Positions 7,929 to 38,085 are shown, numbered from the stretch's first letter. The stretch: 64,000 bases of DNA from Trichodelitschia bisporula (GCA_010356995.1 ML996691.1:936174-1000173); one strand, 5' to 3'. Program-made: numbers and translations. The notes: generated by a model from the sequence alone, not told the origin.

Positions 7929-8504
<576 letters not shown>

Positions 8505-9604
8505 TTAAGCGTCAGCGCAAGTGGCTTCTTGTAGGAAGTGAGGAGAGTCGCCCGGAGTTATGCGCGGGATGAAAGGATGCGGGATGCGGGGAGATGTGCG
8601 TTCGAGGATCTGACACGCGGAGGGGCGGCTAAATGTCGCGGTCGATTCGTAGGCGTCTGTTACACAGCCACAATTTCTGGCAGCACGCGGCATCGCCCCT
8701 TCAGGGCGGCCATTGTCACGTGGTTCGGCGCCTTGAAGCTTACCCGTTGTCCTCGGCAGCCTCGGCAGCTTCGGCATATTCCAATCGACGGTCATCGAGA
8801 TAAGCCTCAAGCACCGTAAGAAGCTTAAGTCTGCTAATGCACCGGGAGAGGGAAAATTAGTTCGTTCGGGATGGCTGGGGATGAGTGTTTTATTATTCCG
8901 ATCCCGATCCCGAGAGCATGGGTAACATGTCGTCACTCTCTCGTAAGTCGTCCTTTCCTTCTCCACACTCCAGGGCAAGAATGAATTGGAAAGAGACCCT
9001 TCCCAAAAGAGTAAAAGACCGGCACAGCCAAGCAAAGCTAAATTCCTTGTAGAGGAAAGTTCAACCAACTTTTTGGTGGGGGCCGCTTGCCGAATCCCGC
9101 TCCTTCATCGGCCATCGTGCCTGCCACCCTTCCCGCCCCGCGCACAAGGCCCAGCCTCCCGGGGCCGGTATTGATTTGCGTCAAGGCCTGCTTCCCAGTT
9201 GTCTCACAAGAGCTCCCACCTCCCACTGAGGCTCGTCTCGCTTCTTTCCCATCCTCCATCTCATCTCAAAATATCGACTTTCGCACATTTCCATCTCACC
9301 CAAACTGCCTTCTTTTTGCCTCGCATCTCCATCTGTCGTTCACATAACCTCACCCCCCGTCAAGTGTCTAACGAACGCGCTGTCGCATCCCGAGAGCGAC
9401 CCTTGCTGATCTTTCGGAGGGTCAAAGCTTGTAGCCGCGACAACCAAGTTGTCGGAGTACACACCGGATCGTCATTACAACAACACGATACTCTCAACCC
9501 CCACCACCTGCACCCTCCCTTCCCGTCTCGCGCGCATCCGCATCTCATCCCATCGCGCACCTACCCGCGACCCCTCCCTCCCCTGATTTTGGGACGCGCA
9601 CCCA

Positions 9605-10266
9605 ATGGCTCCAATCTTCGGCGCGTCAGCGCCGCTCAACACACCCGCGACGCCGCTCCCACGGGCAGCCGACGTCGCCGCATACCTCTCTTCGGCCGCG
9701 CGCTCTCTCGCATCGCATGTCGCATCGCGCCGCTCCATCCTCCCACTCAACCGCCGCCAAACCACCACCGCCGACCAAACCGTCGGCATCATCCCAGCGG
9801 GCTACGCCAAGCTCAACGACGGCCCGGCTCCAGGCACGGTAGTGGGCATAGTGCTTGGATCCGTAGCCGGCTTCCTTTTGCTTATCTACCTGATAAGCAT
9901 GGCAACTGGCAATAATAATTTTTCTCAGCCGGTTGAAGAAGAGATTGTGCGCGTGGAGCGGCCTGCGCAGCGGCGGCGCTCGCATCGAAATAGCGGCTCG
10001 ATACGCGGCTCTGTGGCGCGCAGCCGGTCGCCGCGTCGCATCATTGTCGAGGAGCGGAGGGAAATGTCGGGTGGCCGGCCGAGCATAATAGTCGACGAGC
10101 GGCGCGGCAGCAGGCCTCCGAGCAGACACCATGAGGTTGTTGAGGTCTTTGAGGAGGGAAGCTCCATTGATATGCCCCCCCGGCGGCACCGGAGGAGAAG
10201 CAGTGGTGGTTACAGGTTAGTTCCCACGTCCTTTTGATTATAGCTGTTGCTAACCGTCAGATAGCA
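9605..10266 (+). CDS. Uncharacterised single-pass membrane protein with Arg/Ser-rich cytoplasmic tail; 3' end approximate (intron near 10216)
   Basis: 210-aa ORF with TM segment GTVVGIVLGSVAGFLLLIYLISM. GTTAGT...GCTAAC...CAG intron signals at the end. Confidence 0.7.
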
Positions 10267-13200
10267 GCAGATATTAGACTCTCACCCCGGATTAGATGGC
10301 GGAGTGTTTGGCGGTAATCTTCTGGTACAAAACTTTGGCTTACCTTCTGGAATTTCTCCCGGACGGATCATCGGCAAAAGACTTTTGGTCTCGGCTCGGT
10401 TGGAACCAGATTGATCTCACTATTGGAAACTATGCTTCCATTGTTTTAGAAGGTAGTTGATCGTGCTTTTCCTGTGGCTGTGTTTTTGCATTTTCGGCGA
10501 GTCGCCGGATGGCAGAGTAAATACCCGGTTGGGCTGCATGTGGGGAGGGAGGGGTCCTGCGTTTGGATGAGCTGGTGTTTGATATTGGACCGGGAGTGGC
10601 ATGGCCGGTAACGGATAAGGAAGGGACATGAGTTATGGAAGAGATGGAGTTGAGAGGGAATGAGTACATGATATATGGTATGGATGATGCCATGCTGCCG
10701 CAAAACTTCTTGATATCTTTGGGTCGCCGTACCGCATTCGGTTCGTCCAGCGACGAACCTTGCTTGCTGTTGCGCATCTACAGCCTTGTGTTTCTAGTTA
10801 GGACGTAATGCTAGTTTGTGGCTGCCTAGGTGCCTGTGTGCCTTTGTGCTAGCCTTTGTGAGCTTTGTTCTGATTGTTCAGACATCGGGATGACGACCGA
10901 TGAAGTCCGTCCTTGTGCTTCTTTGACAACCCTTTCCTTGTGCGGAATGATAGCTGCAGTCTGGTAAGAGTGGCATGTGAGAGATTTGTTCTCGATTTTT
11001 GGTACATTTGAATTCTCCACCGACAGTTCTGGTTTAATTTTAGGGTTGAGCTTGCACATGAACAAAAATCAGGGTAGAAAAAGGACCAGCTGCTTCTTGG
11101 ATGGATTCCCGGATGGATATCATTCAGGACAAGCTCCAAACTTCCAGGAAGAGGGAAACATATACATCCGTAACGAGAAGAAGAGGGATATGGTACATCG
11201 GCAATATTGGACCCAAGATGCTTTCCATTACGAGACATGGGGCTCGAGGTAGAATGACGGCATTCTTGGCATCTGATACTCAGCTTCAGTTCCACTAGAA
11301 GTGAAGAATCATAAATCCAGCGATGGTATCTGGACAAAGGATGGAGCGTTTAGACGACATATTGGTGAAGACTGGGGAACAAAGCCTATCTTCACCAACT
11401 GATCCCAACACAGCACGAGGCAAACAACGCTTCATAAGCACATGGCCGACCTCAGCCAGCCTCCATCGATTGCGACATTGAATCACAACTCACTGGCCCG
11501 TACAGTTAGCCCGCCGCCGTTTTGAGGAGTAGGACAGCACGCCATCCAGCTGGATGCAAGCCTCAACGGCAGCGCAGTGCCTCGCATGGCATGGCATCTC
11601 AGCCTCCGGGTTGCTCAGTGCTGGCACAGGCAGCGTTTCGTTCCCCCGCACCATCACGATCTTCTAAACATGCAACGCAGCGCCAGCGTAGGAAACGGCA
11701 TGAATGCGAGTGGTTTGATCTGCTGGTTATGCTTTTGGATGGGGTGGATCTGTTTGTGTCTGCTGCACTTGATGTTCAGCTGGCCGCCGGCATTCCCCAC
11801 GTGTTTGCAGACAACACCGTACGGTCTGGACTCAGCGATCTCGCCATGGTCAGCACTGCGGCGGCGGCCCTGCGGCGGGCATATTCAACGTTACACGGCA
11901 TGGCATTTTCTTCTGGAATGTTCAAGTGTAACGCAACGCAACGCTCCACAACACAACCCACGCCTCGCTGACGCGGTGGCGAAGAAAAAAAGGTCTTCAC
12001 CCAGAGTCACATACGAGGCAATAGCCCGAGTAAAACTCCATAGCGACTCGGCATTGGCTCTTCGTATTAGCAAGCGATCGGGTCAGAAGCTCGAGAAAAG
12101 TAGCACCGTCTGTGGTTCTTTAAGTCTGAGCATGGGGGTTTGGGGTGGGTGGAGCTGAATGGGCTATGAATAGGCAGCACAGCCACGCTGTGGGTCACTA
12201 GCGGGCCTTTAGACATAGATGGCGTGTACACCAGCCACGGCCCGCGGTCTGCGGTTTGAGGCCGACGGCGGCGCCGACGGCGATGGCGATAGTAAGACTG
12301 AGCGTGGCAGTCTCTGGATAGCAAAGCAGTTGCGCATATGCGTCGCTGCGTCGAGATGCTGGGCTCAACGACAGCGCGCGCGAGGAAGAGCGCTTAATCG
12401 AAAGCCATGGGTGATGTCACCACGATCGTCAGGTCGAGAGGGGGTTCATATTGATGGGTTATTGACAGGCCGCGGGGATTATGCGCCGAACAAGGAGCGC
12501 TCGGAGATATTCCCCAGCAGTCGCTCACTACGGATCGTACTATCGGCTCGGAGGGGCCCGTGGTGTCGAGGGGGCATACGCAAAGCGGTTTGCTGACAGG
12601 CGGCACGCGGCTTCAACTCTGCTGCGGCATCCATGGTGAGAGGGACCGGCAGAACCGGGGGGTGTTAAGGAAGGGAGACGGTGTGAGTGGTTCTTGCCGT
12701 GGCCACCCTGGCCAGAAAAATAGAGGGTAGCAGGGCGCAGCAGGCATTTCTACTCGCTGACATGGCTGTCAATAGTCGCTGGGGGTGGCCATGGGTGTAA
12801 CTGGTAACTGGGAGGGCATGTCGTAACACCATTGATGGTCGCCCAAGGAAGTCTTAATAATCGCCTTGCCTTCCTTCACCTCATAACTCTTTCTTAACTT
12901 CGTAGACAAAACACCACAACCATCGTCAGAGAAACAATAGTCGTGGCGACTCTCTGCTTAATTTGTATCTGCACCCACAAAGGCCCGACTCCTTTTCCCG
13001 TGCCTGACGCCAAGCTAGCGCGCGTCCTCTCTCCACTAGGCCTCGACCACCCCCCCCCCGGCCGTACCTTGAAACAGCCACTCCCTTTTCCGCTTCAGAT
13101 TCTCCACTCTCCTCTCCCTGTTCCTTCCCTTCATCCTCTCTCCCCCAGGCGAAGCGACCCCGTTTCCTCTCGTCTTCAAACCTCCACACCACTACTCTCT

Positions 13201-13636
13201 CTCTACCCGCCGGAACACTCTCTTTCCCTCAATCGTTGCGCGTTTCCATCTCTCGTTCGAATCACGCTTCACTCGTTCCCTCCTCTCCCTCTCTCGCCTT
13301 TTCCCTACTGTCTTTCAACCCATAGTTCGGCTCTCCATCTCCTTTTTTTTTTAACCAACTTTCACTCTCAGGACAACACGACCCTGGCGGATCCTGTTCA
13401 GTCTACTACGCCCGTTTAATCCACGACCGTTGATCAACTTGCACGTCACTTCCACCTACATCATCCATCATAGAATAGGAGCTCGCAAAGCGCAGACAGG
13501 GACCTCCAATAACCAAGGAACACACGCGTCGAGTCAAACCCGCATAGAAAGAAAGCTTCGACGTCAAGGGAACCCAAGTGCGCTTCCCGCCGCGCTCATC
13601 ATCATTTCACCCACACACATCCACACATCCTCCAAC

Positions 13637-15916
13637 ATGAAGGTCCGGTGGCGGCCCTCGAACCTCCTCGCCTCCCTCCTCATCCTAGGTGCTCTGCCGG
13701 TCGGAGTACTCAGCGGCGATGTGCTAGAGACTAGCGGCTTCAGCACCTGCGGCGGCGTCGCCGACATCACGGTGCAGCGTATGAACATTCAGTACAACCG
13801 CAACACCAACAAGATCGTCTTCGACGTGGCCGGCACGAGCTCCAGGCAACAGAAGGTCAAGGCCTCGCTCACCGTGACTGCCTACGGGAAGGAGGTCTAC
13901 TCAAACCACTTTGACCCGTGTCAGGAGGGAGCCAAGATTGACCAATTATGTCCAGGTTTGTGCTTTGCCGCTATCATAACTGACAGTAGCTAACCGTGTG
14001 CAGTACCCGAAGGCAACTTCGCCGCCAAGGGTGAGCAAGACATCCCCACAAAGTACGCGAACATGATCCCCGCCATCGCCTTCAACGTGCCCGACCTCGA
14101 CGGAATGGCCAAGCTGGAACTCACCCCTGCCGATGGCGGTGCTCCGGTCGCCTGTATCCAGTCCGTCGTCGGCAATGGCAAGACCATGTCAGTGGTGGCA
14201 GTACCCTACGTTGCCGCTGGCATCGCCGGCGCCGCCCTCGTTGTATCCGGGCTCTCTGCTCTTGCAGCAGGCGGTGCCACGGGTGCCGCGGCACCCAGCC
14301 CCAGCTTCTCCGAGGTCGTCGGCTGGTTCCAGTCCATGGCGCTGAACGGCATGCTTAGCGTACAGTACCCATCGGTTTATCGCAGCTTCGCGCAGAACTT
14401 TGCTTTCAGCGGCGGCCTAATCCAGTGGGAGTCGATGCAGCAGTCGATTGACAGCTTCCGCAACTCAACTGGTGGCAACTTGACGACGGACTCAGTCGCC
14501 TTTCTGAAGAAGGCGACGCTCGTTTATGGGACTGAGAACGGGACACTGGCGAAGCGCGATCTGGCGACGCGTGCGTTTAACCTCTTCGCGCGCGAGGTTG
14601 CCGTCTCCCAGAATACCAATAATCCCACGAATGCCACTGAGGACAGCAAGACGATGCACTTTGTCCACGGCATCCAGGGCTATGCCGAGAAGCTCATGAT
14701 CCCGCAGTCCAACACGTTTATGACGATTCTGCTTATCTTCGCTGTCATCATCGGCGCCATCGTCGTCGGTATCCTGCTCTTCAAGGTCATCCTCGAGACG
14801 TGGGCACTGTTCGGTTCGTTCCCGAAGCGCCTCACCAGCTTCCGTAAGCGCTACTGGTGGATCATGGCCAAGTCCATCACCAACTTAATCCTGCTCCTCT
14901 ACGGCGTGTGGACCCTGTATTGCGTCTACCAATTCACACGCGGCGACTCGTGGGCTGCGAAGCTGCTCGCCGGCGTGACGCTGGCACTCTTCACTTTGGT
15001 GCTCGCCTACTTTGCATGGAAGATTTGGTCCGCGGCGCGCAAGTTCAAGAAGGCAGAGGGCGACGCCTCGGGCTTGTTCGAGGACAAGGAGACGTGGCGC
15101 AAGTACAGCCTGTTCTACGAGAACTACAAGAAGGGTTACTGGTGGCTGTTCTTGCCCGCCATTATCTACATGTTTGCCAAGGGCGTGGTTATTGCGGCTG
15201 GTGACGGGCACGGCATGTTCCAGACTGCTGGCCAGCTGATCATCGAGAGCATCATGCTGGTTCTGCTGCTGTGGTCGCGGCCGTACACGCTCAAGTCCGG
15301 CAACTGGATCAACATCACGATTCAGGTCGTGCGTGTGCTGTCCGTCCTGTGTATCTTGGTGTTTGTCGAGCAACTGGGCATTTCGCAGACGCCGAAGACG
15401 ATCACTGGCGTTGTGCTCATCGTCATGCAGTCGGTGCTCACGGGCCTGCTGGCTATCTTGATCGCAGTCAACGCGCTCATTGTCTTCTGCAAGGCGAACC
15501 CGCATCGCAAAGCACGCAAGGAGGCTGGTACGTTCCCCTTTCTTTCGAGTATGTACAGTACTAACAGCATTGCAGAGAAGAAGAATCGTGACATGGACGC
15601 CTTGACGCCTCTCGATGCGCGCAACTCGCTCCTGCTCTCGCCGGAAGAATACAAATCGACTGGCCGCGGACAACCGCCAATTACCGACGTGCCGACTCTC
15701 GACCCGAAGCACTACAAGTCGAACAGCCAGGACAGCTACCAAATGGAGGAGACGTCGTACCGCGCATACCACCGGCCGGCGGAGAGCCGTGATAGGCTGC
15801 TGTCGACCAGTCATAGCAACGAACAGGTTATTGGCCGGGACGTGAGTCCGCAGCCGTCGATGCGGGCGCCATTGTTGCCGGAGGTGGATTTGGGGTATCG
15901 GAGAGGGGGTTACTAG
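13637..15916 (+). CDS. FLC/Pkd2-type TRP-like flavin carrier / Ca2+ channel (TRP_N ML-like domain + TRP domain), 3 exons
   Basis: Signal peptide, LETSGFSTC, AYGKEVYSNHFDPC, IPAIAFNVPDLDG, WFQSMALNGMLSVQYPSVYRSFAQNFAFSGGLI, multiple TM helices. Confidence 0.93.
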
Positions 15917-16648
15917 GTTGACTATAAATTTGTTGGAATTTTTTGAGGATGGGAAAATAGCGGACATGTGAACTGGGGAGGTGCAGATTATGATCGTGGA
16001 TTTAATTGTGCGAAATAGGCTTCAGGCCTGTGAGGATCGGCTTCAGGGCGCTGAGAGATGTTGAATACCCCGCTGACGACGGCTTTTCCTTGTGTTGTGT
16101 GGTGAAGTTGGTGATCGGGACTGAGGTTGAAAGAGGAGGTAACTTTGGTTGCCCACATGTGCACATCTACGGTGAGGAGCAGCGGAATCTTCTTATTCAT
16201 ATGCATTCCCTTTGCCCGTCTATCTGATTGACATCTGTTTCTTTACTCATTGTTAGCGCAGGTCGGGTCGGACGGCGTTTTGCAGGTTGAGGAATTTCGA
16301 GGGAATCATTCTGTGTGGCTCGTGTGTCGTCATTTGTCTTCAGCCTTGTTTGTGGATGATAAGACAGGGTAGGGTATATATGAGCGCTGTACTATGTACA
16401 TTACTACCTTCCGTACCTAGTTGCGGATCGGAGAATTCAATAGCGTGGTTGTCGATCTTATTGATGCCCTTGACGTGGCTCAGCCTCGTTGCACTTTATT
16501 CCGGTCCTAGCCCCGGGGGAGTCAGGGATGAGTCTTGCCCATCCTTGTCTGTAGGGAGGGCAAGACGGCACAACGTCATCTCATTTCGCGCCTCGGCCCT
16601 GCTGGCGGGGGAAGTCCACGATGTCTCGCGTAACATGGCTTTCATTAT

Positions 16649-17590
16649 CTACCCCATGGCCCATAATCCGATTAAAGCGACAAGACACCACCACCCCGCA
16701 AACGCTCCACCGCGGACCGCGTCGCCTTTCTCTGCGCCGGCCGCTTTGCTTTCGCCTAGATACCACCGCCCCACGCTGGAGAGACCGCCCTTTTTGTCGA
16801 GCAGAGCGGCGCTGGGACCGATGTTGCTGGCGTCGGAGCGGAAGGTGCCGAAGTAGGCGTGGCGGGAGACGTTTCTGCTCGTCCCATTAACGCACCATCC
16901 TTCCACAGCGGAAGAAGTGACTTACTTATGCCCCTCCAGAAATTCCACCGTCTGGTTGAAGAACGTTTCTGTTGTTTTGGCGTCCGCGCCGGGGAGACCC
17001 CACTCCGTAACCCAGATCTCTTTCGACGGGTACGTCGAACTGACGTTCGTGATGAAGGGCACGAGGCCCTCGAACGCGCCGTACCAGTGCACGGCCACGA
17101 AGGCCGCATCATCCTCGCACTTGCACGTCTTGAAGAAATCCGCAAGCCAGGCCAACCCCCGCGGTGACCCCGTAATGGCCGGCGCACCGACTTTATACCC
17201 CTCCTTGCGCAGCGGCGCGAGGTACTTCCCCCATAAATCAGCCGCGGTGCTGACGGACATGCTGCTCCCGCCGGTTTTGGTAGGTTCGTCGGGTTCGTTG
17301 AAGGAGAGGATGTATTCGGGTTTAGGGCTGAGGGAGTGGATTTGTCCTGGGAAGGCGGAGGGGATGTGGCTGGTGTCGGAGCCCCAGAGCATGGGGACGA
17401 AGGAGAGGCTGGAGGGGAGGCCCGGGGCGGGGAGGGGGGAGTAGTTGTAGTACCATATTAGCTCGGGGGAGCTGGTGTAGGTGGTGAGGTCGGTGGGGTG
17501 GGCGGGGTGGATGTACACGAGACCGCGTTTGGAGGAGGCGGCGAGGGTGAGGGGAGTGAGGAGAGTGAGGGTGAGGAGGAGGAGGTGCAT
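16649..17590 (-). CDS. GH128 (Glyco_hydro_cc / Asl1-like) beta-1,3-glucanase, secreted, probably GPI-anchored; 2 exons
   Basis: Signal peptide, SKRGLVY, WYYNY, FVPMLWG, FNEPD and IWVTEWG (catalytic Glu pair), hydrophobic C-terminus. Intron at about 16925-16875. Confidence 0.92.
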
Positions 17591-18078
17591 TTTACGGGGA
17601 GAGGTCCGGAGACCGGGGAACGGAGACCGGAGGGCTGGATTAAACGAGACTAACAAGTTACACGACAGTAAAGGCGACACAACATCACGGAACCACGCAG
17701 GAACAGCGAGGCTATATATTCAACGGGCGCAGATCGCATCAACGGGCAGATGACCGTTCCTACGCCCTCCACGCGGCGCAGAAAACAGGGTCTCGAAGGG
17801 GTTTACAATCACTGCAGATGTGTGGTGCAACGTTGACTGTGCCTGCATGGTATTTTTACCTGTCTATCCCCTCCCCAATTCAGGTCTTCCAGCCGCTGAT
17901 GTAGGCCAAGCCTGACCCCTGTCCATCCGACCGGTACCCTGGTAAGGCGCAAGGCTGAAGTCTCAACACAGCATTTGTGTACGAGCCATGCGTCCGGGAG
18001 CCCCGGTGGCGGAGTTGGCTTTTATCTGCATCACACGGTCGCTTTGATAATCTCCCACCCAGTCATCAGTCTGTTTAG

Positions 18079-18875
18079 ATGGACTCCAGCAGCGGGGAGG
18101 CAGCACGGCGGTCAGATTCGTCGGCGTGGTCTCGGGCTCGATGTTCATGATGAGAAACCGGGTGACCTTGGAACAGCGGATGCGGGTGCAATACGTTGCT
18201 GAACTAGGTGGCAGCTGGGGAACTCCAGTTGTCGGCGCCAATCCTGAGTATATACCAGTACGTCATGCCTTGATCGGTACAGCAGGTATATATGCCTCTC
18301 CTTCCTCTTATACTCGCATCCGACCGGTCACTCCTTATCACGATCCCGTTCCGAAAGTTGAACACAGAGGGTGGAGTGATTTCCAAGGCAAAGGCATCGG
18401 GCAGGCCTGCAGCCCGAACGGCCGCGAGGACGTCGGTAGGGTGAGGTTGACTCGGGCTCTTCGTCCTCATCGCTGTACTTCTCCATGGCGCTGGGTGTGG
18501 CAGTGGATCAAAGTCCCTGAAGTCCCCCTCCCTGCGGTAGTAGAAGTACCGCTGGTACTCGGCTTCGTCCAAGCGGTCTTAGAATGTGGACGGTTGGTCA
18601 AAGATCAAGTCGCTGGGCCGAACGTCCTCCGGAGTGCCGGGTATGGCGCCGCTATACTCGAAGTCCGCCCGGTATATATCCCCTCCACCTCCGTCCTACG
18701 ACGCGTCTCTCTTATACCCGTGGTGAGCTTTCCGCCGCTTTGAAAGTGCGAAAAGCTTCGTGAATGCCCGTCTCTCGCGCAGGATTTATATAGCGCCTCC
18801 TCCAGGACCGGCGAAATGGTCAACTTCAATGGGATCTGGAAGTAGTGGTGTTGGAGGTCGCATAAGGTTATACAT
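18079..18875 (-). pseudogene. Decayed gene of unknown family, interrupted by in-frame TAA/TAG stops
   Basis: ORFs 18786..19175 and 18204..18572 are in one frame. Stops: TAA (18786-88), TAG (18696-98), TAA (18579-81), TAG (18204-06). Protein-like sequence such as HPTDVLAAVRAAGLPDAFALEI. Confidence 0.55.
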
Positions 18876-19197
18876 AGTGGAGGAATTTCTCCGGCAGATT
18901 ATCAAGAGATCGTTGAAGTTATAGCGTATCCTCAACCTTGCGGCGGGGTTTCGGCAACAATACTGAATGACTAGCCTTGTCGAGCTGAGAAGTCCTCGCA
19001 AGGCTGACCGAGAGTTGAGGATTCGCTGACGAAGAGGGCCGCCTTGATGCAGAACGAAGCACCAAAGGGCTACTTCCATCATCCTAGCACACGCACATGG
19101 CCTCGGATTGAAACCAATCAAACTCGCTGGGAGCTTGATGTCGTGAGATGCCGGTATACATATACGCCCGCGCATGCGCTATACTTGTACGGCGGCT

Positions 19198-19805
19198 TCA
19201 TGCCAACCGGCCGGTCGAGACAGCCGGTATATATGAATCCTGCGTGGTGTCGGCACCGGGGCGGGATGGGGCGCGGGGCTTGCTCTTCACGATGCTGGCG
19301 GACTGCGCACGGGGTTGTGGATCCCCGGCGGATGAAGCTTCAGTCGTTTTTGCCTCGTCCTCGCCAGCGGGCTCTTCCGGCGCCGCAACTTGGAACTTCT
19401 TCGGAAGACCTGGCAGCAACGCCTTGAGCTGTGCCGCCATAGCGGCGTCCACCTTTTGGAATGGCTTCTTCTTATATAGCGCCTTGAAGCTTAGAAGCGT
19501 TGTCGCGGGAAGAAGTGTCGGGTCGAACAGCAATGATTCGTCCACGTCGATGGACTTGTTGCGCTGGTGCGCACGAGTGCTGGCCATCTTATATACTGTG
19601 CGAGGATTCCACGCGGTCTTGCGATTGCTGGTGCGTTAAAGAAGAAGGATTTGGAGATATAAGTGGTGAAGGATATATACGACGTGACGCCGGGCGCGAG
19701 ATTATACTTCGCTGGGCCAAGACCGGCTGGTCCGCTGGGAGGGTGCCGCATGATGATTGTAATGTCCGCATTGCCGGTGATGCTCCGCTGGACTGTGCAG
19801 TTCAT
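19198..19805 (-). pseudogene. Possible frameshifted orphan gene
   Basis: A CA-rich leader ends in CACCATG (ATG at 19805; MNCTVQRSITG...). Coding-like sequence continues in a different frame (ORF 19198..19587). Confidence 0.35.
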
Positions 19806-19914
19806 GGTGGATGTTGTTGATTTGGCATGTGATGTTGGTTTTGTTGGATAGGTGCGCCGCTTCAGAACGCGGGGAGATAGGCGTTGGAAGGGGATTGGCA
19901 AGAGGCCATCTTCG

Positions 19915-21760
19915 ATCCCTTATACTTAGTAACCGCCTCGTCCTTGAGTGCATCGACATCCGGGTCACCGAGTCTCGGCTTCCCAGCTCCGCAAGCTCTT
20001 GGTCTGAGGGACGCGACACAGTTCTTTAAGCTTTGAATGAGTGGACTTTTCAACCTTCTGAAGCTCTGAAAGCCGATATGTAATAATGGCTTTGAGGTCG
20101 TGGCCATGGCATGCCGCAGCGAAGGTCTGAAGATTGGCCTCGGAAGCCTCAAAAATATATAGGAAGAGGACTTCAGATGACTTCAGATGATGCTGAGTAT
20201 ATGGGGCTTTGAATATAAGACGCTTTCTTCGATGAAGGTGATGTCGAGGCATGCATTGGTGGGTGGTCAGAAACTTTTTGAGGTACTGTGGAATCGAGAA
20301 GCTAGGCATCTTTTCGTTTCAGAACCAAAGGCTCAACGAATCAATACCGAAACCACAGCTAACTCGAGTAGAAGTAGTAGGAGTGCGACAAGAAGTGGGA
20401 GAGTAGTTTCGAAGAGTTAAAGCTTAGGCTCGAAACATCGAAATCGGGATTCAAGGCCGAGAAGTCGATATAGGACAAGCCAGCAATAAGAGCGCCGATA
20501 TTGCCTGGAACTTTGATGAAGGACCTATACGCGGTAGTGCCCTTGGGTTTTAAGTCGTCTTTGCCTTTGACAAACTCGGTGATATCACAGAACAACAGGA
20601 GGCCTATGGGATTAGCGAGATACACTACCCGCGGTAGAAATGACAGCGGCACATACCAAATTTATAGTCCTCTAGGCCTATATGAAGGACCTGCCCGTGC
20701 AGTATGTCTGCTTCCAGGCCGGAGAAGTCGGCTGCGACGCCTGCAGGCCGAGATGATGCGTATCTCGGAAGACGCAGAAACCGCGGCACAGCCCTTGACC
20801 TGGCACTTAACATCGTCCGGTTTAGTGGCCTCACGCTCGGCGCACTTTAGGCGGCCCATGGCTTTATAGAACCGCAGGATGTTTGCCGCCCACACCTGGG
20901 CAGTTTTCAATGGTGTGCCTCTGTAACTGAAGCGGAATGAGAAAGGGAGCTTTTTGGTCCTCGATGCCGCGATATAGTGCTTAGGGTTGCTCGCACATCC
21001 GGAACAGGCGTTGTGATGCCCTATAATTTGTATATTCGTCCACATCGATGGTGTGAAGTGTAACCTAAGACCGGTTAGGGGAAAAACTTGCGGTGCGGGG
21101 GGACTTACGAAGCACCAGACGTTGACCTCTTTCTGCTGGCCAAATATATGGCAGCTGCAAACAGCTTGAAGCATGGTATCTTCGTATACGCGCTTGGAGC
21201 CGATGCCTTCCTCTGCTCCGAAACGCTGACGCACGCGGCGAGTGATTTGAGGAGTCGAATGCCGAAATTGGATGGGGCATCTCAGAACAACTCATGAACC
21301 CAAAAACAACCTGAACCATATAATCTTCTCGCGCTTACGCTTGCGAGCGTCGCCGCTTATATTCCGAGTCTTCATGCTGGTCCTTAGCGATATAGGGCGC
21401 TAAGAACACGACATGATTCGCATTCTGAAGGTTTCTGCTAAGGTTAGCTATGGTTCGCTCGAAGGCCTATTGAACTTACAGTCCAGATTATACCGGTTTG
21501 AAAGTATAGAAGAAGGAGACCGTGTGGCAACCAACTTCTCATGAGTGAGGCGGCGGAAGGTGACAATAACAGCATGTTGCTCGGAGCTTCCAGAGGATGT
21601 TATTGAAAGTTGAAAAATGTGACAGTGAGCATCGGAGGTGGTCCCGAAGGATTTGACTCTCTGTTGAAAGATCGATATCGTTTGAAATCGAGTCGTCAGT
21701 GTCTTCGAAACTAGGAACTTTCTTCGATGAAGATGGTGTCAAAGTAAGTGAAAGGGATGA
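19915..21760 (-). pseudogene. Scrambled, mutated relic of a DNMT5 paralog plus copies of its upstream region
   Basis: Direct by-eye matches to the intact gene, e.g. SEANLQTFAAACHGHDLKAII, LLFCDITEFVKGKDDLKPKGTTAY, ILRFYKAMGRLKCAEREATKPDDVKCQ, HNACSGCASNPKH, TMLQAVCSCHIFGQQKEVNVW, NLQNANHVVFLAPY. Confidence 0.9.
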
Positions 21761-22463
21761 GGTGTAGGCAAAGGTTTACAGTTCTCACTGGGTGAATGTT
21801 GTAGGAAGAAAGCAGAGTGCGAGTGGAAGTGAGGACTTTGTTCACCTCGAGGGAAGGCGGGCACTCGCTTGGCCGCAGAGGCCGGAGATTCTTCCCCCGA
21901 GCTATCGAGCGGGCTTGTGCTTCAATTTAGCAAGTCCGGGGCTTTATTTACCTGAGCGGTGAGTTGGGGCACTGGCTCGAAGATTCAAGCCATCAAACAG
22001 TGGGCAGTTGAGGACACCATCAGGAGGCGGTGATGACTTGGCAAGGCTGGCGGGAGATCATTCTGCATGGGCCATCGAGCGGGCTATAACTTAATTCAAC
22101 GGATCTGGAGTAACGTTTACCCAGGCGGTGAAGTAGATTCACTGGCACGACTGGTTCGGAGATTCTAGTAATCGGACAATGGGCAGTTGATAGTTTGCGG
22201 AAGTTCAAACCAAAAGGAGGTTTAGAAAAGATCTTGTCAGCATAACGGCTTTTACAGTAGTGATCGTATGCCAATCAAATGTCCATGACACACTAGCACG
22301 CAACATTGCAAGAGATTCGGAAGAGCAGATGAGATTCTCGAGCTAGAAACCTCAATTATCTCCCCAGCCAACCAGACTATTACTCGTCCAAGGACTACGG
22401 TAGGGAGACCTGGGATAAGGTGAGATCTCAGCGATCATCCATCTCGGCATCGTCCAACTCGTC

Positions 22464-25400
22464 CTACAACTCGTCTCCCGATTCCTCCTCTGACTCGTCC
22501 TCCGATTCGTCCTCCGATTCGTCCATCGACTCGTCCTCCAGCTCCTCCGGCTCCTCCATGTCCTCGTTCGAGTCGTCGTCCGAGTCCGCCTTCTCTTCCA
22601 CGTCCACCGAAACAGCAAAAGAGTAGGGCAGAAGCGACCCAGAGGTAAATCCCTTCTTTACCTCTGAACCAAGTTTACGAACCACACTCTTCGGAACTAG
22701 AGCGTAGAGCCCGGTCGTCTCAAGCTCAATGAGCTCTGCGTCCTCGTTGCCTTCCACGTGCGTACCGAGCGAGAGCGTCTGTGGATGGGACCTCATGGAG
22801 CCGCGGTCAACCAGCGCGCGCTTAAGGCGGCGCTCGCTACGCTCAAGAATGTCCACGTCGATCGTGTGAAGGGCAACCTAGACCTGTCAATGGAGAAACT
22901 TGCGGTGCGGGGGGGAACTTACGAAGCGCCAGACGTTGACTTCTTTCTGCTGGCCAAACCTATGGCAGCGGCGAACCGCTTGAAGCATGGTAGCTTCGTA
23001 CTCCTGCTGGTCCCTAGCGAGGTAGGGTGCTAAGAATACGACATGGTTCGCTTTCTGGAGGTTCCTGTTGAGGGTTAGTGATGGGATTGGATAGAGGATT
23101 ATGAAACTCACAGGCCAGACTGCTGCCTACTGTCGAAATCAAGGATGAGCGCCCGGAGACTCTTTTCCGTCTTGAAAGACTTTATCGCTTTCTCGGTGGA
23201 GCCGATGACACAGGCGATATTATGAGTCTCCAAAGTGCGCTCCACGATTTTGCCGAGCTCTCCCGTCTGGACAAAGATGACAACTTTATCGTCATGCGGT
23301 AGCTCACGAAGAAGAGAGGCGATTTCGTCGATCTTCGAGCCTTCGGTCTTGTCACCATTGTCGTCCCCAAAAGCTGTGACGGGAAGGGCGTGGGTGGGAA
23401 GGAAACCAGCGTCGCAGCCGTCAACGCCACAGACAATGGGCAAGACTTCGTTGCCCAGACACTTCGTGCAGACACAATGCCCGCAGGCCGGAATGATATG
23501 CATCTCGGAAGACGCAGGAACCGCGGCACAGCCCTTGAACTGGCACTTAACATCGTCTGGTTTAGTGGCCTCACGATCGGCGCGCTTCAATCGGTCAATG
23601 GCTTCATAGAAGCGCAGGATGCGGTGCTGCAGAACAAGCTGCAGCTCCACACGCCGAATCTCCTCCAAGAACTTGCGAGGATCCACCACTGTTCCGGTCT
23701 TCTTCTGGGCTTTGTACTGGGCAAGAGCCTTTTCCTTGAATGCATCCGCATCCGGGTCGCCGAGGTCTTGGGCTTCCCAGTTCCGCAAACTCTTGGTCTC
23801 ACGGACGCGAGGCAATTCTTTAAACTTTGAATTAGCGGATTTTTTGATCTTCTGAAGCTCTAAAAGCCGATAGGCAATGATAGCTTTGAGGTCGTGGCCA
23901 TGGCATGCCGCAGCGACAGTCTGTAGATTGGCCTCGGAAGCCTCGGAGAAATCGGGTTCCGGCCCCACGCCAGGATAACGACGAGGCGCGCGAGGGTCCA
24001 CCTTCTCCGCCGGTGTTCCCAGAAACTGCTCCTTTTCCATGGCATACCGAGCATCCTCATAGAACGCTCGATGAACGCAACTCAGATTGACTGGCTTAAG
24101 GAACTCATGGCAAACAATACCGTGCAGCGGCGCTTCGTTTTTGCGAGCGAAGGTCCTCAAGAACTTTGCTGCCATGTCGTGGCGCGCCTTATGCCAACGA
24201 TGTGACTTCTGCTCCTGTAACGACCGAAACGATTCACCAACCGTCAATTCCGCGCGGAATTCTTTCAGCTTCTTCTGATTCAGGACGTCTTTTGACAGAA
24301 CCTCTGGTCCCAGATCAATTCCAATCAAGCTCGCCATGAGCTTGATATCCGAGAAGTCCGCCACTGGGGGTGTGCCCGAAAGCACCCACTTCTTCGACGC
24401 GCAAATGCTCGCTGCCGAGTCGAAGACAGGCGTGTATTTCTGATATGCGCCCTTTCCCGGACCCAGCTCCATCAAGTCGGCGTACTCGTCGATGATGACG
24501 CGGTTCCACTTGAACAGCTGCAAGACTGGCTGCAAAAGGTGATTCCAGGCATCACTGGCATCGGTGCTCTGCACTCCACCCTGTACCTTGCGACGAGTCT
24601 GAGGCTTGCTGACCTTAAGCTTAGCCTTTAGTTGAGCAGCGTTTTGAGCCCCCTTCATGCGCTTTGTCGGAGCAGTGGCGATAAGCTTCTCGTCGGACAA
24701 GAACTCGCCAATACGGTTGTCGAGGTATGTCGAAAGCTCGGAGACCGTATGGCCTTTCATAAATTCGACGTTTTGACGAAGGCGACCATCTGCCACCTTG
24801 TACCACTGTTGGAATTTACGACCGGACAAGTTCGGAGGTGGCATCCCGGCGAGCTGCGCCAGGTGAGACACATACGTATCGTAAGTCAACAAGCTGAAGG
24901 CGATAATGACGATCTTGGCGCGCTGAACTTGGGCCACTGTCAACTTCCTCCAGTCATTGATCGTGCGGATGACGATGACCATCTCTTCGCCGAACTCGGA
25001 ACTATCGAAGAACTTCTTGTGTTCATTAGCCCACTGGTCTCGCAGCAGATCCGGAGCGATGATCAGCGTCGCGGCCGTCGGAATGAAGCCGGAATCGGAT
25101 TTGAGCGGCTCCTCAATCTCATCGCGCTTCAAACGCATGAACTCTTCGTGGATCAATGCCAGAGACGTCAGAGTCTTCCCGAATGAAGGTGCATCTGCTA
25201 GGATCCCGCCCTTGACATTAACAATGGTTGAGGCACGGATCGCAGCGCGCAGTTGAATGCGATCAATCATCGCCTCTTCGATCGCCTCAAGCTTGAAGGG
25301 GCGTCCCTTCTCCTGAGAAATCATCCAGCCCAGCGAGCGAAGCTGCTCATCTCGAAGCTCGACCTTCATGGCTTCAGGCTGGTTACACATCGCATCATCG

Positions 25401-28400
25401 GCGTTGTTCAGAAGATTTTTCTCCAGGGAGGGAAATGCAACGACTGGCGGCACGAAATAGTCCGTCTCAATGACCCAGTGAAGGGCAATGACGTCGGCCT
25501 GGCCTTCTGTCAAGTTTGCCATCCGAGCAAGCTCCATGATTGCCCGATGCGACAATGACACCACGTTCAAGCCGATCTTGAGCGAGGCGCTGAGCCCAGC
25601 CACCTCTGTATCAACCACAAAAGGCTTAGGGCGCGACTTGATGGCATTTTCGAAGTCGGCTGCTTCAATGTGGTCTTCAACAGGGTCCGTCTGGTTAAGC
25701 CAGCGAAGGTGGGGTGGCATAGGGCTGCAACGGCACCGGAAGGCGGAGACGATAATATCCTCACGCATCTTGTGCCAGCGATTCGCAGTCCCGCGAGCCT
25801 TGAACGCATCTGGCCCCAGGTTTCGAGTGGTCCACGCCAAAGCATCCCAGAAGCGGGAATCGTTCGGGTCGTGCTGGGCCTTGGTAGGGGGGAATTTCTC
25901 CTGAAGGTGTGACGGTATTTCAGAGAATGGGAATGCAGCCTCGAAGAAATAACCGGCCGTGAGACAGATATTCTCGTCGTCGTTACCTTCTGATGCTCCG
26001 AAATGATGACGTAGGCCGCGGGTGATCAGAGGAGTCCCATCTTGAAATTGTATAGAGTTTCCTAGACTAACCCATGAGCCGGGAAGCAAAGCGTCGACGC
26101 GCCAAGGTCCATGTTGCTCCCGCAATTCCGAACGCCACGGATTGAACACCGGGACGTCAGGCTTGTTCCAAGGACGCCAGGAGGGCACAGACGCGATGAT
26201 GTCCCGCTTTTCACCACGGCCAAGGCGCTCGTGAGATTTGGCGAACACGAAAGGATCTTGATCCGCCTCTCCCATAGGATCGGGATCCAGAAACAGATTG
26301 ACCTCGGTGTTGCCCTCCTTCTGGTACAGCGTGGAACAGGCTGTGCCACAATTGGCTAAAAGGAGATATTTGCCTTGAAGTTTTTCAGCCGTCGTACCCA
26401 GCCCTTGTCCGGCCACAGATATCTCCAGGCGCTCGGGGACTGTCTCATCGAGATAACCCGGGATGTTCAGCTTCGCCCGGAAGGAAGGTAGCTTCTTTCC
26501 CTTCCCCCTGAGAAGAAGATTACAATGCTTGTCTTCTGGCAAGAAAACGACCCACTGCTCGGCGCTCAATTCAGAACCCGAAAGCCCAGAGCAATCGGCT
26601 TTGATGATGGGAGTCGCTAGCACCTTACGCAGCCAGGAATTGGCGGGCAAGTTATCCACCGGTTTGGCATAGACCTCCCAGTACATCATGCGGTCGGTGG
26701 GAATCTTCAGCTCCGCCCAGGCGTTGGGAGCGTCATAGATGACTGACCATTCGCGGCCGCGGTGGTAATTTTTCCAGACGAAGTCGGAGTTCAATGCGAC
26801 CGTGAGAGCCTGGCCGTACATCACGACATTGTTCGACAGCCCGGTGCTCTGGAAAACCGCATTCAGCCTCTTCTCACACGAGTCCATGGAAGTCTCCGCA
26901 ACGATCCTGAAAATACGCGGAAAGTGCTGGCCGGACTCCTTCCAGAAGGACTCCGGAGGCGCTCTATCTGCGCGAAGAACCTTCTTCGCCGTGAGATGAT
27001 GCTTCGGATAGCTCACGCATCCCGAACAGACGTTGTGTCCACAACTATCGCAGACCAGGATGTCGAACTTGGAGAGACCCTTCTGACCTTCGCAAGTGCA
27101 ACGACGAAGTGTCTTCTCCGCACAGCTACGGATGGTTTGAGTGACTGCTTCGGTGTTCTGGCTGGTCACGTTGATCAGGTCGGGTTCAAGAGCGTTCTTG
27201 CCCCAGGTGGACAGCTTCTTGACTTCAGTCCCTGGCGCGCGAGCTGGCTCGATCGACTTCGTATCGAGTTTCCCGTGGGCGACGATGAGCGCGGAAAGAA
27301 TTGCCGAGCCGACAACAGTCGTGCTCATGGCGTTACCGGCAAGATCCTTCAGCTGGCTGTCCGTCTCCGAGGTAAAGGTCACCTCATCAATGGGAATGCC
27401 TTGCAGGCTCAGCGTCTCCTGCCCAGTGAGGAGACCAATGCGATCAGTCAAGAAGCACATGCCTCGAGGCGTCAAGCATCCAGTGAGTCCCAACTGGGCG
27501 CGGTCGACGCGGTCGACGTTCTGGCTGATGTCGATGATGCGGGTCTTGTACGTGAAGTCAATGCCGTTGCGAGCATGCTTCCGGAACAAGATGTCGATCA
27601 GATCTGAATCACGCATTGGACGGTTCTTGAGCCAGGCCTTGTGCGCATGCTCGGGCATCTGCTGCAAGAATGGAGGTCCAGAATCGATGTTGAGGTCTTC
27701 GCGCGCGTTGGCATGGCGGTTGCGACAGGCTTCCCACGATAACTTCTTTGGCGCTGTGAACTGTTGAGCGTCCTTGATGTCAATTGCGCGAGGATCGTCA
27801 TCCTGAAGAAGGAAGTCCGAGACAGGAGCACTAGCCCGACGCTTGAACCCGTCCATGACGCTTTCCCACTTGCGGCTGTATTCGGTGGCTTCTTCGAGGG
27901 TGAAGTGGTCCCGGATGTCCAGGCAGATCATGTATCTACGCTCACGCGTGTGCGGAATGTAGTACTCCTTGGTATCCGTCTTGACATCTTTGGCTACGTA
28001 TCCCACGGACCAGAAATAGTCACGAAAGCTCTTCCAAGTCTCCGCTTTGGCCACTACATTTTCCAGAATAACGATGGCTGGGCGCGTGCGCTTGGAATAC
28101 TCCAGGATGGCCATGAACGTATTCGTAGACTCGCCATTGCGCTCCCTCGGCATTGTGATCATGTTGGTGTTCAACTTCGAGAAGTCGACACACGATGAGC
28201 CGGCAATGAGGACGTCGATGTCGCCAGGAACTTCGAGGAAGGACCCATACGCGGTGGTGCCCTTAGGCTTTTCATCCTCCTCGCCTTTGACAAACTCCGT
28301 GATATCCCGGAACAGCAGCGGAGGCTTGAAGTTGCGCTGAATGTACGCCTGCTTGAATGCGTCGATCTCCGCGCTGAAGACGTGCTCGACCTTGAAGGGT

Positions 28401-29332
28401 TCCTTCTCCTTTTTCTCCAGAGCTAATTGAAAATCAGCATATAAGTCAAAATTAAACCGCACATTGTAACTTACACTTCTGGACCAGAGTGAGAGCAAGC
28501 AATGGGCTCTCAGTCCCACTGCACATGGTGGCGACCCGAAGAGGCCTGCCATTGAGGTGCCTCAGAACATCTTTGAATCCAAGATCAATCGCCTTATCGG
28601 TGAGCGCATCAAATATCTCATTGATGTCCGAGATTGGCGGGAGCTCCATATCCAGCCCCTTGACGCGACGGCGCGGAGTCTTGCGAGTGCGGCCAGCGGC
28701 GACGTCCGATTCTTCCTCAGAATCTTCCGAACCAGGCTCTTCCTCAGCCTCTTCAGTCTCAGACGGAACTTCCTTATCATAATCCTCGACAGTACCCGAA
28801 AGACCAGGCGGCCCATCGTCGACGTCCATCTGGTTGGCGTCATCTTCGGCGTCGGTGGCTTGAGCCTCGTCCCGACGAGCCTCCAGAACTGGAAAAGCTG
28901 TATAAGGCTCATAAGCATCTTCACCATGCTTGGAACGATTGATGGACATACGCCCAACCGACGTAGTAAGCTCGTCGTCGTTGTTGCGCGCGAGAGCTGT
29001 CTGATGTTAGCAAGGCTGAAATTCTTGGGCACGTGACCGACTGAGAACCGAGATGGGACCAGCAACAGTCGGACAAAAACACCGCACAGAACATCGTGCA
29101 GCGAGAAACTTTGCGACAAGAAACCAACTGCTGGATACATGCTGGACGGGGTGCACCCCCCGCCCGAATGGAAGGGGGCAAGATCGAGTGGGATGTGGGC
29201 AGAATGCTGCGACTTACAGCGAGTGGGAGTCCGCGGCGGCTGCGCGGAGCGAGCACGCTTCTGGTCGCCTTCTGGGCTTACAGACGATTTGTCCGCTGTA
29301 AGCTTCGCCTCACGCTTACGCTTCGACTCCAT
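22464..29332 (-). CDS. DNMT5: DNMT5-type C5 cytosine methyltransferase fused to SNF2 ATPase and RING-like Cys cluster (over 2100 aa). 5' exon structure uncertain (minimal start ATG 28949; MESKRKRE at 29332).
   Basis: MTase motifs ATMCSGTESP (I), FSAEID (II), IAGSSCVDFS (IV), ILENV (VI), PHTRERRY (VIII), DLAGNAMS (X). SNF2 motifs GGILADAPSFGKT, IIDEY, LSGTPP, SGLNLQKANHVVF, QAVRRCHRFGQQK. RING-like CGHCVCTKC...CGVDGC. Introns at about 28474-28423, 23112-23066 and 22922-22878. Confidence 0.95.
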
Positions 29333-29399
29333 GATCGTGATGTTGCAACTTAATGTGTGGACTGAGACCGGAGTTAGCAATGATCGGAGACACTTTTCT

Positions 29400-30200
29400 A
29401 CTTAAGGAGCCTAATGCTGTTTGCTTCTTTCCGTTGATACCAACAGCTTTAACCCATTGAGCAAGAGGTAAAACAAACCATTGATGTATCGAACCCCAAA
29501 TGGGGAAACTTACCTTGTGGATGTTCCGTAAGGAACCGAGAGATTAACGTGGAATGGAGAAGGTAGGCTTATTTTCGTCTTAGAACCGAAGGTTCGACCA
29601 ATCAATGCCAAAACCACAGCTAGCTCGAGCAGAAGAATTAGGAGTGCGATAGGAAGTGGGGGGTAGTTCGAGAAGTTAAAACTTAAGGTCGAAAGATTTG
29701 AAATTAAGAGATCGATATCTTCGAAACGGAAAACTCTCTTCGATGAACGCGATGTCGAAGTAATCGTCGAAGTAAGCGTTGAAGCCCGAGGTCTAGGGGT
29801 TTTTTCATTCACTCTAGGTCGTCACGGGGCTCTACAATTGTCTACTTGACATCGGCGCCCGAAAGCCGACGACATCGATAAAAGCTTCGTTAACGGAGAA
29901 ACCCTTTAACCGCTTCGAAAATACTAGCCCGAGCAGTTTCTTAAGCATCTTTAAGGTAGAAGAGCTAGAGGTAACTGCTCTACGCATATCAGACTAGGGT
30001 AGACAGCTTACTCTATAGCGATGGGATGAAAAGGCTTCTAATCCTATAAGTTATACGAACTCGAACTTCTCTTCTTCTTCCTTATTCCCCCTTACTTCGC
30101 CTTCCGTCTCGCTTAAGTAGAGACAATTCCATGCAAAGGAAGCAAGGGGTAAGCCTTATAGGATAATTTGAAGAGTCTAAAAGCCCCTCTTAACCTTCTC
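29400..30200. other. AT-richer, TpA-rich tract with a RIP-like signature; 29520-29770 is repeated at about 20220-20450 and 21665-21750
   Basis: Many TA/TTAA/CTAG words and few CA/TG relative to flanking genes. Direct sequence match aatcaat.cc.aaaccacagcta.ctcgag in two places. Confidence 0.6.
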
Positions 30201-30785
30201 AGCATCGAACGCAGTCTTTGAATGATACCGTATTCCCAATCCGTAGCCAACATTCCGCATCGTATTCCGCTTGTCCTGCCCGAAATGCAAACGAAGAATC
30301 AAGTCCGCACATCTCCAACCGTTTCAAAAGCCCACTGCCAGCACCAATCCACCATATCTCTCGTATTGCGCTTGAATTGCACCAGTTCAGTCCGCGGTAG
30401 TCGCCGAGAGGAACCCCTAACCCACGCCCCGGGACGATCCGGTAAGCGAACCCTAGCCGAGCCCAAGGCAAGCGGCTCACGCCCCACTCCGCGCGGCGAG
30501 AAGATACGGAGAATATTTGACGGAAGCACGCATCGCATCGGTGCATTGAAGGCATTGGATACGGGCACTGCGTTCGACGGCATGGAGTAAGAGCGGTGAT
30601 GATGCGCTATCTGGCGGCAGGAGTTACTGTAGGATGAAGAAACGCTGAAGACGGAAGATTGCAGTTTCGTACGCCCGAGACGCCAGGACATTACATGAGA
30701 GACAAAGTTCAACGACCAATATGTTATCAAACCGGCCGGGCATTACGCATTGGGCAAAAGGCTGCTCCACGTCGTCTGGAACGGC

Positions 30786-30794
30786 AAAAAGAAA
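30786..30794 (-). terminator. Pol III oligo-T terminator of tRNA-Gly
   Basis: TTTCTTTTT about 15 nt downstream of the tRNA 3' end. Confidence 0.75.
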
Positions 30795-30808
30795 TATCAA
30801 CTGGATAT

Positions 30809-30901
30809 TGCGTCGGCCGGGAATCGAACCCGGGGCCCGTCGAATCGTCCCCGAATGACTTCGGATGGCAACGACGGATTTTACCACTAAACCACCAACG
30901 C
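30809..30901 (-). tRNA. tRNA-Gly(GCC) with a 22-nt intron (30865-30844)
   Basis: Acceptor stem GCGTTGG/CCGACGC-A, D arm TGGTTTAGTGGTAAAAT, anticodon arm CGTCG-TTGCCA[intron]T-CGACG, T arm CCGGGTTCGATTCCCGG. Confidence 0.97.
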
Positions 30902-31566
30902 GCTTTGATGCAAGCTGGACCTTAAACAAAAGTCTTCTAGCGGAAAGTACTAACTGCGGCGCTAAAGGGGTGTTCTGAGCCATGCTGAAGCCTAGTCCTA
31001 GATCCGGAGGGAAAAGGCAACAGAGGAATCGTAGAGAAGGAAGTAAAATGGGCTATCAGTGGGAGGACGTTTGCCAAACATGATCAAGAGTCAAAGAACA
31101 ACGGCGAAAGGGAGTTATATGAAAGTATATTCTCATGAGTCTAGGCACCCCTGTTACAATCCTAAGCAAACCGTCAAACGAGGCCCCAAAGACGATGGTC
31201 ATGGTATCACATTCTCAGACGTTGGCTAGCAAACCGGGTGGCCGTTTGGCATGTCGAATTTGTTCATCAAAGGGACCAGAATAGCGATACATCATAAGTG
31301 ATAATGGAACGTCCATTTCAGCTTTCAACAGGCCACTCAAATTGCTTCCTAGTGGAATCAGCAAAAAGACTTCCTTGATACCCGATATCTGCGACTGGCT
31401 GTACAATGGAGTACGCTCCAAAAACTGTGCCTCCCGAGGGTATATCGAAGGCGGTGACCGCCTACCTTAACAAAATCATCCAGAACGGGGGCGCTCCGCT
31501 GGAGTCGACTATGATGACTAGGGGTCACCATCGTCGTACTTAACTCCATTATTCAGAGGAAGACTC

Positions 31567-35466: not shown

Positions 35467-35560
35467 TGGGTGGGAGGGGGAGGGGTGCTTTGGGGGTTTT
35501 TGGGGAGGCAAGAGCTTTACGCTCCACGGCACGTGCAGAAGGTTGAACATCATTCTCTTA

Positions 35561-38076: not shown

Positions 38077-38085
38077 TATATATAT
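38077..38085 (+). promoter_or_regulatory. Probable TATA box of the flotillin gene
   Basis: TATATATAT in a GC-rich context about 180 bp upstream of the ATG. Confidence 0.45.

Follow-up and report, generated by a model that had tools for sequence, protein, structure and literature searches.

Patchwork loci of same-direction gene snippets in Trichodelitschia bisporula, one of them beside the DNMT5 gene

The gene-fragment Helitrons of maize, bats and Pleurotus and the Pack-MULEs are, like the loci described here, composed of several short fragments of unlinked genes per locus, gathered by sequential capture. The accessible portions of the published accounts give a mean fragment length of about 280 nt for such Helitrons and Pack-MULEs (10.1101/777037; PMC4224331; PMC4289320), and for maize Helitrons 78.6% sense orientation, with two or more fragments in 68% (10.1101/777037). 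The patchwork loci differ from both in having no termini, inverted repeats or multi-copy loci, in being about 99% sense, in drawing on 10-35 donors per locus and in the nested insertion of pieces into older ones. Templated insertions in yeast dna2, rad27 and RPA mutants, as the available part of their description has it, show medians of 88-187 bp and 0-4 nt of microhomology, and their donors often lie at R-loops (PMC11724301). Like the patchworks they are copied and pasted from distant loci, with several fragments at a site; they arose, however, in mutants at an induced break, and the complex events were often inverted (PMC11724301), whereas the patchworks are fixed in a natural genome, have accumulated over a long time and contain no inversions inside a locus. 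In the accessible account of Magnaporthe, template jumping by a LINE yields chimeras of two or three transcript parts in the same direction, usually with the LINE 3' end and with flanking direct repeats (PMC2104539). The patchworks share with these the common direction of the parts and an apparently active LINE in the genome, but consist of dozens of intron-bearing parts and carry no LINE end. RIP-inactivated dim2 in Zymoseptoria resembles the tract described below as a case of decayed DNA-methyltransferase copies in a Dothideomycete; as far as that source goes, these are whole amplified genes altered by C>T (PMC8016269), whereas the tract consists of shuffled snippets with a balanced substitution spectrum and an intact donor.

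The window, by which we mean the whole 64,000-nucleotide stretch that was analysed, is C5:936174-1000173 of a 25.8-Mb, 44-contig Dothideomycete genome. It contains an intact DNMT5 gene (22464..29332, minus strand), the donor of the tract, with an open frame of 1817 aa in which Pfam recognizes a C5 methyltransferase domain (PF00145) followed by a SNF2 domain (PF00176) in a single protein, the combination given as the DNMT5 architecture in the accessible part of the literature (PMC7862722). A Cys-rich stretch is visible by eye at about 23400-23550, with no Pfam match to a RING finger. Two introns (about 22876-22920 and 23064-23110) are seen in RNA-like contigs, and two others (28424-28475 and one above 29004) are predicted. 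The closest homologues, Venturia proteins among them, are 40-44% identical; Venturia inaequalis has two DNMT5-like proteins (P0003 and P0052), to the first of which the DNMT5 studied here is closer. A genome search recovered one full-length DNMT5, so that a colinear paralogue elsewhere is absent.

Beside this gene, at 19904-21747 on the minus strand, lie nine short pieces of it, recovered by self-BLAST and iterative local alignment, and the preliminary description of a shuffled mosaic of short same-strand DNMT5 fragments is confirmed. The pieces are 50-250 bp long and 72-87% identical to their sources, share one strand and keep their introns; their order is unrelated to that of the gene (Spearman -0.14, 11 pieces), and they score 56-312, whereas 180 random pieces drawn from other parts of the window reached 34-38 at most. 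From left to right they correspond to the region after the SNF2 domain (19904..20150 = 23696-23944, 86% over the BLAST core), an upstream region that is probably 5' UTR (20288..20444 = 29549-29704, 82%), the methyltransferase core (20450..20603 = 28170-28325, 78%), the lead-in to the Cys-rich RING-like stretch (20739..20881 = 23479-23621, 87%), the CSGC motif (20966..21015 = 26988-27037, local alignment), the region of the last intron (21038..21186 = 22851-23000, 87%), a stretch missed in the earlier map (21201..21309 = 25981-26089, 72%), the region of the second-last intron (21372..21487 = 23002-23119, 77%) and a second upstream stretch near the 5' end of the locus (21668..21747 = 29685-29763, local alignment). 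Both introns are retained with intact splice signals, and the missed piece lies within a 185-bp insert that splits the source-contiguous stretch 22851-23119. Eight of the nine pieces mapped earlier hold; the KRKRE segment at 21330-21345 has an 11-nt core only and does not rise above chance. The piece placed at 20220-20450 does come from upstream of DNMT5, but is really two permuted parts, of which 20223..20247 (= 29734-29758) is borderline, its score of 38 equalling the null maximum. Altogether the DNMT5 pieces account for 1230 of the 1857 bp of the relic, and for the other 627 bp no donor was found up to E 1 (three candidates).

In the methyltransferase piece the catalytic SC indeed reads SY, AGSSCVDFS of DNMT5 corresponding to AGLSYIDFS in the relic. 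Both 3' introns kept in the relic are spliced in RNA-like contigs of the gene, which agrees with the origin at the DNA level (or from unspliced RNA) proposed earlier, and the order of the pieces rules out, as had been argued, deletion from a tandem duplicate and requires repeated switching or fragment capture. No sign of misassembly was seen: the DNA contigs over the relic have single-copy depth and 0 differences from it, and a contig of 3820 bp bridges 20093-23912 (short reads; same sample, possibly the source of the assembly).

The tract had been taken for the outcome of an event in one gene, and this does not stand: it runs on leftward with pieces of other genes, and DNMT5 pieces occur in patchworks on three other contigs. 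It is the 5' half of a locus, here called W (17800..22000, minus strand, about 4.2 kb, with approximate edges drawn from TATA density and flanking genes), the rest of which carries pieces of at least five other genes. All scored W pieces face the minus strand, and the locus counts 10.9 TATA per kb, where the remaining window has about 1 per kb. The leftward pieces derive from genes without a Pfam family at C9:487772 (L030; 18010..18145, 92%), C4:282015 (L031; 18386..18681, 75%, the same stretch being present in patchwork L064) and C19:283-284 kb (L153; 19367..19473, also in L027, L066 and L069), from a PHD-finger gene at C5:625933 (L029; 19486..19658, 86%) and from the 5' end of a gene at C8:313483 (L006; 19729..19819, 77%), all of them on the minus strand, as is a segment common to W and patchwork L065 (19234..19287, 85%). 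The contig of the L030 donor also aligns at 18010-18145, with loose ends. Within 1-19700, five of 18 matches came from 18010-19658 and the others looked like paralogues or short repeats; the flank at 30601-50600 matched a tRNA family only (12 of 13 candidates scored) and that at 51000-64000 gave one paralogue-like stretch (one of two candidates scored). A multi-copy tRNA-like gene lies at 30805-30910, with 12 matches elsewhere, and is called tRNA by size, copy number and read depth. RNA-like runs, from one sample, give almost no cover over 19.4-21.9 kb and one contig on 18046-19278, which we count neither for nor against expression of the relic. W is best explained as having decayed to a pseudogene-like state with no demonstrated function today.

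By genome BLAST the DNMT5 region (8.25 kb) has 17 non-self matches, five in the tract and 12 on contigs C1, C6 and C2, where local alignment places 8, 4 and 1 DNMT5 pieces, respectively. These sites are also patchworks, one of them a 10-kb locus with 48 matches from 35 scored places, and four further patchworks, reached through shared pieces other than DNMT5, give the same picture. In all, 21 loci form one network of shared segments and 19 of them are rich in TATA, with dozens of unlinked genes as their donors; the count of 19 is a minimum, the network having been followed outward from a single locus, and for 11 of the 19 the view was limited to stretches of 3-5 kb. Each patchwork examined is single-copy and consists of 40-350-bp copies of unlinked genes whose originals are intact. 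The longest segment common to two of the 21 loci is 280 bp, and the longest match in whole-locus searches 413 bp. Where copies in different loci overlap they are mostly independent and not homogenised, the exception being two tandem copies in L026; descent of the island copies from one another was rejected on this ground. A literature search of incomplete coverage returned no description of such loci in fungi, and no loci of relatives were found in metagenomes.

Sixteen donors could be named by Pfam: DNMT5, PHD, Ada3, Iec3, Clr2, TPR, an AAA ATPase (which we take to be Yta7-like), VIT1, an RRM protein, Vps62, PLD, a TBC protein, a kinesin, a 3'-5' exonuclease, a mitochondrial carrier and a kinase with a His-tRNA-synthetase-like domain. 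Numerous others lack a Pfam family. Seven of the 16 (DNMT5, PHD, Ada3, Iec3, Clr2, TPR and the AAA ATPase) are chromatin or nuclear proteins, a post hoc count with no background. DNMT5 is a frequent donor, not a demonstrated target, and its link to the patchworks looks minor. Four of the patchwork loci were chosen for holding DNMT5 pieces. A gene at C10:657 kb (L168/L172/L174), presumably a zinc-finger and RNase-H-like gene by its motifs although without a Pfam match, donated four pieces to L066. At L099:1224-1395 (C16:670-671 kb) a piece matching the Gypsy-like locus L133 lies in L099's own direction. Eleven places (L140-L151), most of them in patchworks, share an intron of 44-46 nt together with its flanks, and its splice sites look better kept than the flanks. 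We considered this intron as an element end or introner (its pattern has 12 matches against 0 in a reversed control) and rejected both, since homology enters the flanks; it is therefore read as a much-copied donor piece.

The patchworks are also regular in direction. Among 80 pieces in five loci, all 56 coding pieces face the same way as their donor, with one polarity per locus (24 unscored); in three more loci, 28 pieces gave 25 that could be scored and 24 of these are sense, 22 by automatic assignment and two, one a sugar-transporter-like exon and the other a piece with an intron, after the wrong ORF picked for them was corrected by eye. The total is thus 80 of 81 scorable snippets. The sole opposite piece, on the outer margin of L065, may mark the beginning of another locus. 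A single polarity assignment accommodates 96 of 97 shared segments, the remaining one being a palindrome, and all 36 internal repeats within loci are direct.

Pieces measure 41-318 bp, with a median of 107 (65 pieces). Of 20 joints between closely adjoining pieces, half are seamless, with microhomology of 0-4 nt, and the remainder hold short filler; the microhomology is weak (mean 1.4 against 0.68, p about 0.02), and a second measure is null. Nesting of the A|B|A type, in which an insert splits a source-contiguous piece with a loss of 0-12 bp, is frequent, with split points at 23000|23002 in the DNMT5 tract and at 27438|27441, 26324|26324 and 23242|23245 in other loci. In three cases the insert is the younger (PLD of 86% in pieces of 79-81%, Vps62 of 91% in DNMT5 of 79-83%, and PLD of 92% in 74-78%), whereas the insert in W, at 72%, has diverged further than its host pieces, at 77-87%. 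All three DNMT5 introns spanned by pieces are retained with intact splice signals, two of them being spliced in RNA-like contigs of the gene, and no exon-exon joint left by splicing occurs among 26 printed joints.

The preliminary description had remarked that many differences are C>T or G>A, and this is not a prevalence: in the seven BLAST pieces 58 of 171 differences are of these kinds, against 50 reverse transitions. Over the larger set of substitutions C>T plus G>A amount to 407, the reverse to 367 and transversions to 580, and C>T by context (CpA 0.095, CpC 0.086, CpG 0.12, CpT 0.068) does not favour CpA. RIP was rejected as the cause on account of the balanced spectrum, the missing excess of CpA>TpA and young LINE copies that are 95-99% alike. 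The CpG rate, 0.12 in the pieces against 0.07-0.10 elsewhere, is only a hint that DNMT5 may act in CG maintenance. For the DNMT5 pieces in the tract, changes at 74 of 462 0-fold sites and 34 of 116 4-fold sites are as expected of a neutral copy beside a conserved gene, and three exact matches of at least 20 nt between tract and gene remain. Across all donors, the donor frame has acquired nine stops where 21 would be expected (P = 0.002; the expectation is perhaps somewhat high, part of the change having occurred in the donors), while the other five frames are at expectation; the DNMT5 pieces alone, with four stops against 5.5, show no depletion. In-frame joints number 14 of 28 (10 of 20, four of seven and one out of frame) against 9.3 expected, some joint frames having been set by the longest ORF, and 10 of 40 indels have a length that is a multiple of three. 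Neither joint of a PLD insert of 92% in L064 keeps the frame. The youngest chain, L069:3216-3703, has four pieces of four genes at 91-96% in one frame with a single stop; the chain comprises pieces of genes of sugar-transporter-like, coiled-coil and reductase-like (presumably Erg27-like) type, of a mitochondrial carrier and of an AAA ATPase, the last four sharing the frame.

A second puzzle beside the patchworks themselves is their gain of TATA, to which every kind of base change contributes, often two at a time. TATA density in the 19 loci runs from 4.7 to 10.9 per kb, whereas controls have about 1, and in a ranking of 136 four-mers by gain TATA comes first, at 0.217 where the median is 0.056. 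The rates of C>T, G>T and A>T each rise 3.5-5-fold where the change creates a TATA, with no such gain in the donors, and TATA was gained through two changes 19 times against 3.1 expected and through one change 16 times against 7.7. Selection keeping TATA was rejected, donor TATA having been kept in five of 12 cases, as for neutral sequence. The gain looks more like the overwriting of short patches than like selection or RIP.

Helitron-like traits are present in the patchworks, namely multi-gene fragments, retained introns and sense bias. A strict hairpin-CTRR pattern found no ends in nine of nine scanned loci (and none in the control), no shared termini were found between patchwork loci, and a search of the genome for Helitron Rep/helicase gave one weak Helitron_like_N match (51 positions, 28.6 bits). 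The window has no minus-strand self match, and terminal inverted repeats of the Pack-MULE/Pack-TIR kind are absent. LINE coding or 3' parts found no match in the patchworks compared, and no A-tail stands at the printed locus ends. In size and joints the patchworks fit the pattern of break-repair templated insertions, for which copied-and-pasted pieces of about 50-500 bp and microhomology of 0-4 nt are expected. They behave like fragment-capturing elements or repair insertions, yet do not pass as Helitrons, Pack-MULEs, LINE chimeras or RIP relics. The resident elements comprise a young LINE family (L129-L131, L136), several Gypsy-like elements (L126-L128, L132-L134) and one Copia-like element (L138), all without RIP-like skew; the LINE copies are 95-99% alike, and one has an open frame of 1188 aa with an intact endonuclease-RT. 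Multi-copy repeats of 200-270 bp lie inside L066:6485-6687, L065:2929-3196 and L064:5463-5693, with at least 15-30 copies each, mostly 86-97% identical, and that in L066 is a solo LTR with a 5-bp target duplication. A methyltransferase gene at C10:91 kb, RID-like on our reading of its motifs, looks intact. A BAH and methylase gene (L184, C5:1273020-1276331), which we take to be DIM-2-like, looks broken, with motif I in another frame and two stops in the main frame, one of them a TAG where Trp is usual.

Two RNA-like runs, both from one sample and neither recorded as RNA, show spliced antisense RNA over most of DNMT5 (24018..29500, plus strand, right end approximate), with GT..AG joints at 24536-24623 and 28965-29015 on that strand in both runs. 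The sense intron 28424-28475 is left unspliced in an antisense-spliced contig, and sense-spliced contigs are confined to about 22316-23900. This distribution of sense- and antisense-spliced contigs suggests a two-way internal promoter inside DNMT5 near 23.9-24.0 kb.

The reading that we favour, with about even confidence, is serial insertion of snippets at breaks in transcribed loci, with their direction filtered by the transcript of the locus; its break, its enzymes and its filter we infer from the pattern of the pieces. Short DNA pieces would be copied from transcribed genes and inserted one after another at breaks within a transcribed, lineage-specific locus; end joining, over 0-4 nt of microhomology or with short filler, would seal them in, as in yeast templated insertions. 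A filter on the locus's own transcript, acting through frame and splicing, would then set the direction: sense, spliceable and often in-frame inserts would leave a translatable chimeric message and be kept, and antisense inserts, bringing stops or pairing with donor mRNA, would be lost. W would have drawn most of its 5' pieces from the adjoining DNMT5 before it decayed. Retained introns and nesting argue against mature RNA as the template, single copies without ends argue against a moving element, and sizes, joints and copy-paste origin match yeast templated insertions, in the available part of their description (PMC11724301). Since end joining by itself favours no direction, the filter would have to work almost without fail, and to do so for non-coding UTR pieces as well, whose sense direction a filter for open frames leaves unaccounted for. 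Direction would be built in if a reverse transcriptase, for example that of the resident LINE, jumped between unspliced nascent RNAs and the chimeric cDNA were inserted or converted the locus. This rather unlikely alternative accounts for 80 of 81 sense pieces and for the genic donors without selection, has a young LINE with an intact endonuclease-RT frame to call on, and is preceded by the same-direction LINE chimeras of Magnaporthe, although the available part of that account gives these two or three parts and flanking direct repeats (PMC2104539). The copies keep introns that are spliced in RNA, the patchwork loci compared hold no LINE coding or 3' match, and nested pieces of differing age would need the same direction at every later event.

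Rolling-circle capture by a non-autonomous Helitron-type element, the loci being old elements with eroded ends, is unlikely. Sense-biased multi-gene fragments are the Helitron pattern in the accessible part of the maize account (10.1101/777037) and the genome has its one weak Helitron_like_N trace, but the nine scanned loci have no hairpin-CTRR end under a strict pattern that also gave none in the control, and neither shared termini nor a multi-copy locus appears even though pieces of 91-96% mark recent activity. Scrambling in place of a tandem DNMT5 duplicate, by shattering or local template switching, with the other patchworks arising separately, is quite improbable. It would explain why a stretch of 1.9 kb contains nine or ten pieces from all over the adjoining gene, in the direction of the gene and headed by an upstream/UTR copy, and proximity may have raised the donor rate; at least five other genes, however, have also left pieces in W, alike in polarity and in TATA mark, C1 has eight DNMT5 pieces far from the gene, and shattering predicts inverted pieces, of which there are none. 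The suggestion made earlier that the tract is a silencing or small-RNA source against DNMT5 we regard as very improbable, as we do a role of the tract as a decoy for the antisense RNA. Spliced antisense RNA over DNMT5 could in principle pair with sense patchwork RNA, and chromatin or nuclear proteins make up seven of the 16 Pfam-named donors (again post hoc, with no background), but the pieces face the sense direction and have decayed neutrally, three exact matches of at least 20 nt are left, and copies in different loci are independent rather than homogenised. As for an assembly artefact, which the short reads and a DNA sample that may be the assembly's own source could raise, its probability is negligible: the pieces differ from the gene by 13-28%, and separately assembled contigs, one of them spanning 20093-23912, agree with 0 differences at single-copy depth.

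The origin of orphan genes is an open question, and shuffling of short coding snippets is usually seen only in transposons or repair mutants. In the present case at least 19 patchwork loci are fixed in one compact genome; they differ in age, and each offers tens of insertions that can be dated and whose donors are known. We tentatively propose, as a possible if somewhat doubtful interpretation, a dedicated and directional process of gene building, in which fixed transcribed loci would take up sense and preferably in-frame snippets of 15-100 codons, chimeric proteins would be assembled, tested and discarded, and TATA patches would be the footprint of the process. If this is true, the DNMT5 tract would be the remains of one patchwork gene, some of the long genes without a Pfam family that are frequent donors could be earlier products, and such a dedicated process would be categorically new. 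The loci permit direct tests of whether direction is built in or selected, whether chimeric frames are translated and which repair or RT enzymes act, and patchwork loci may be a route for assembling new chimeric genes.
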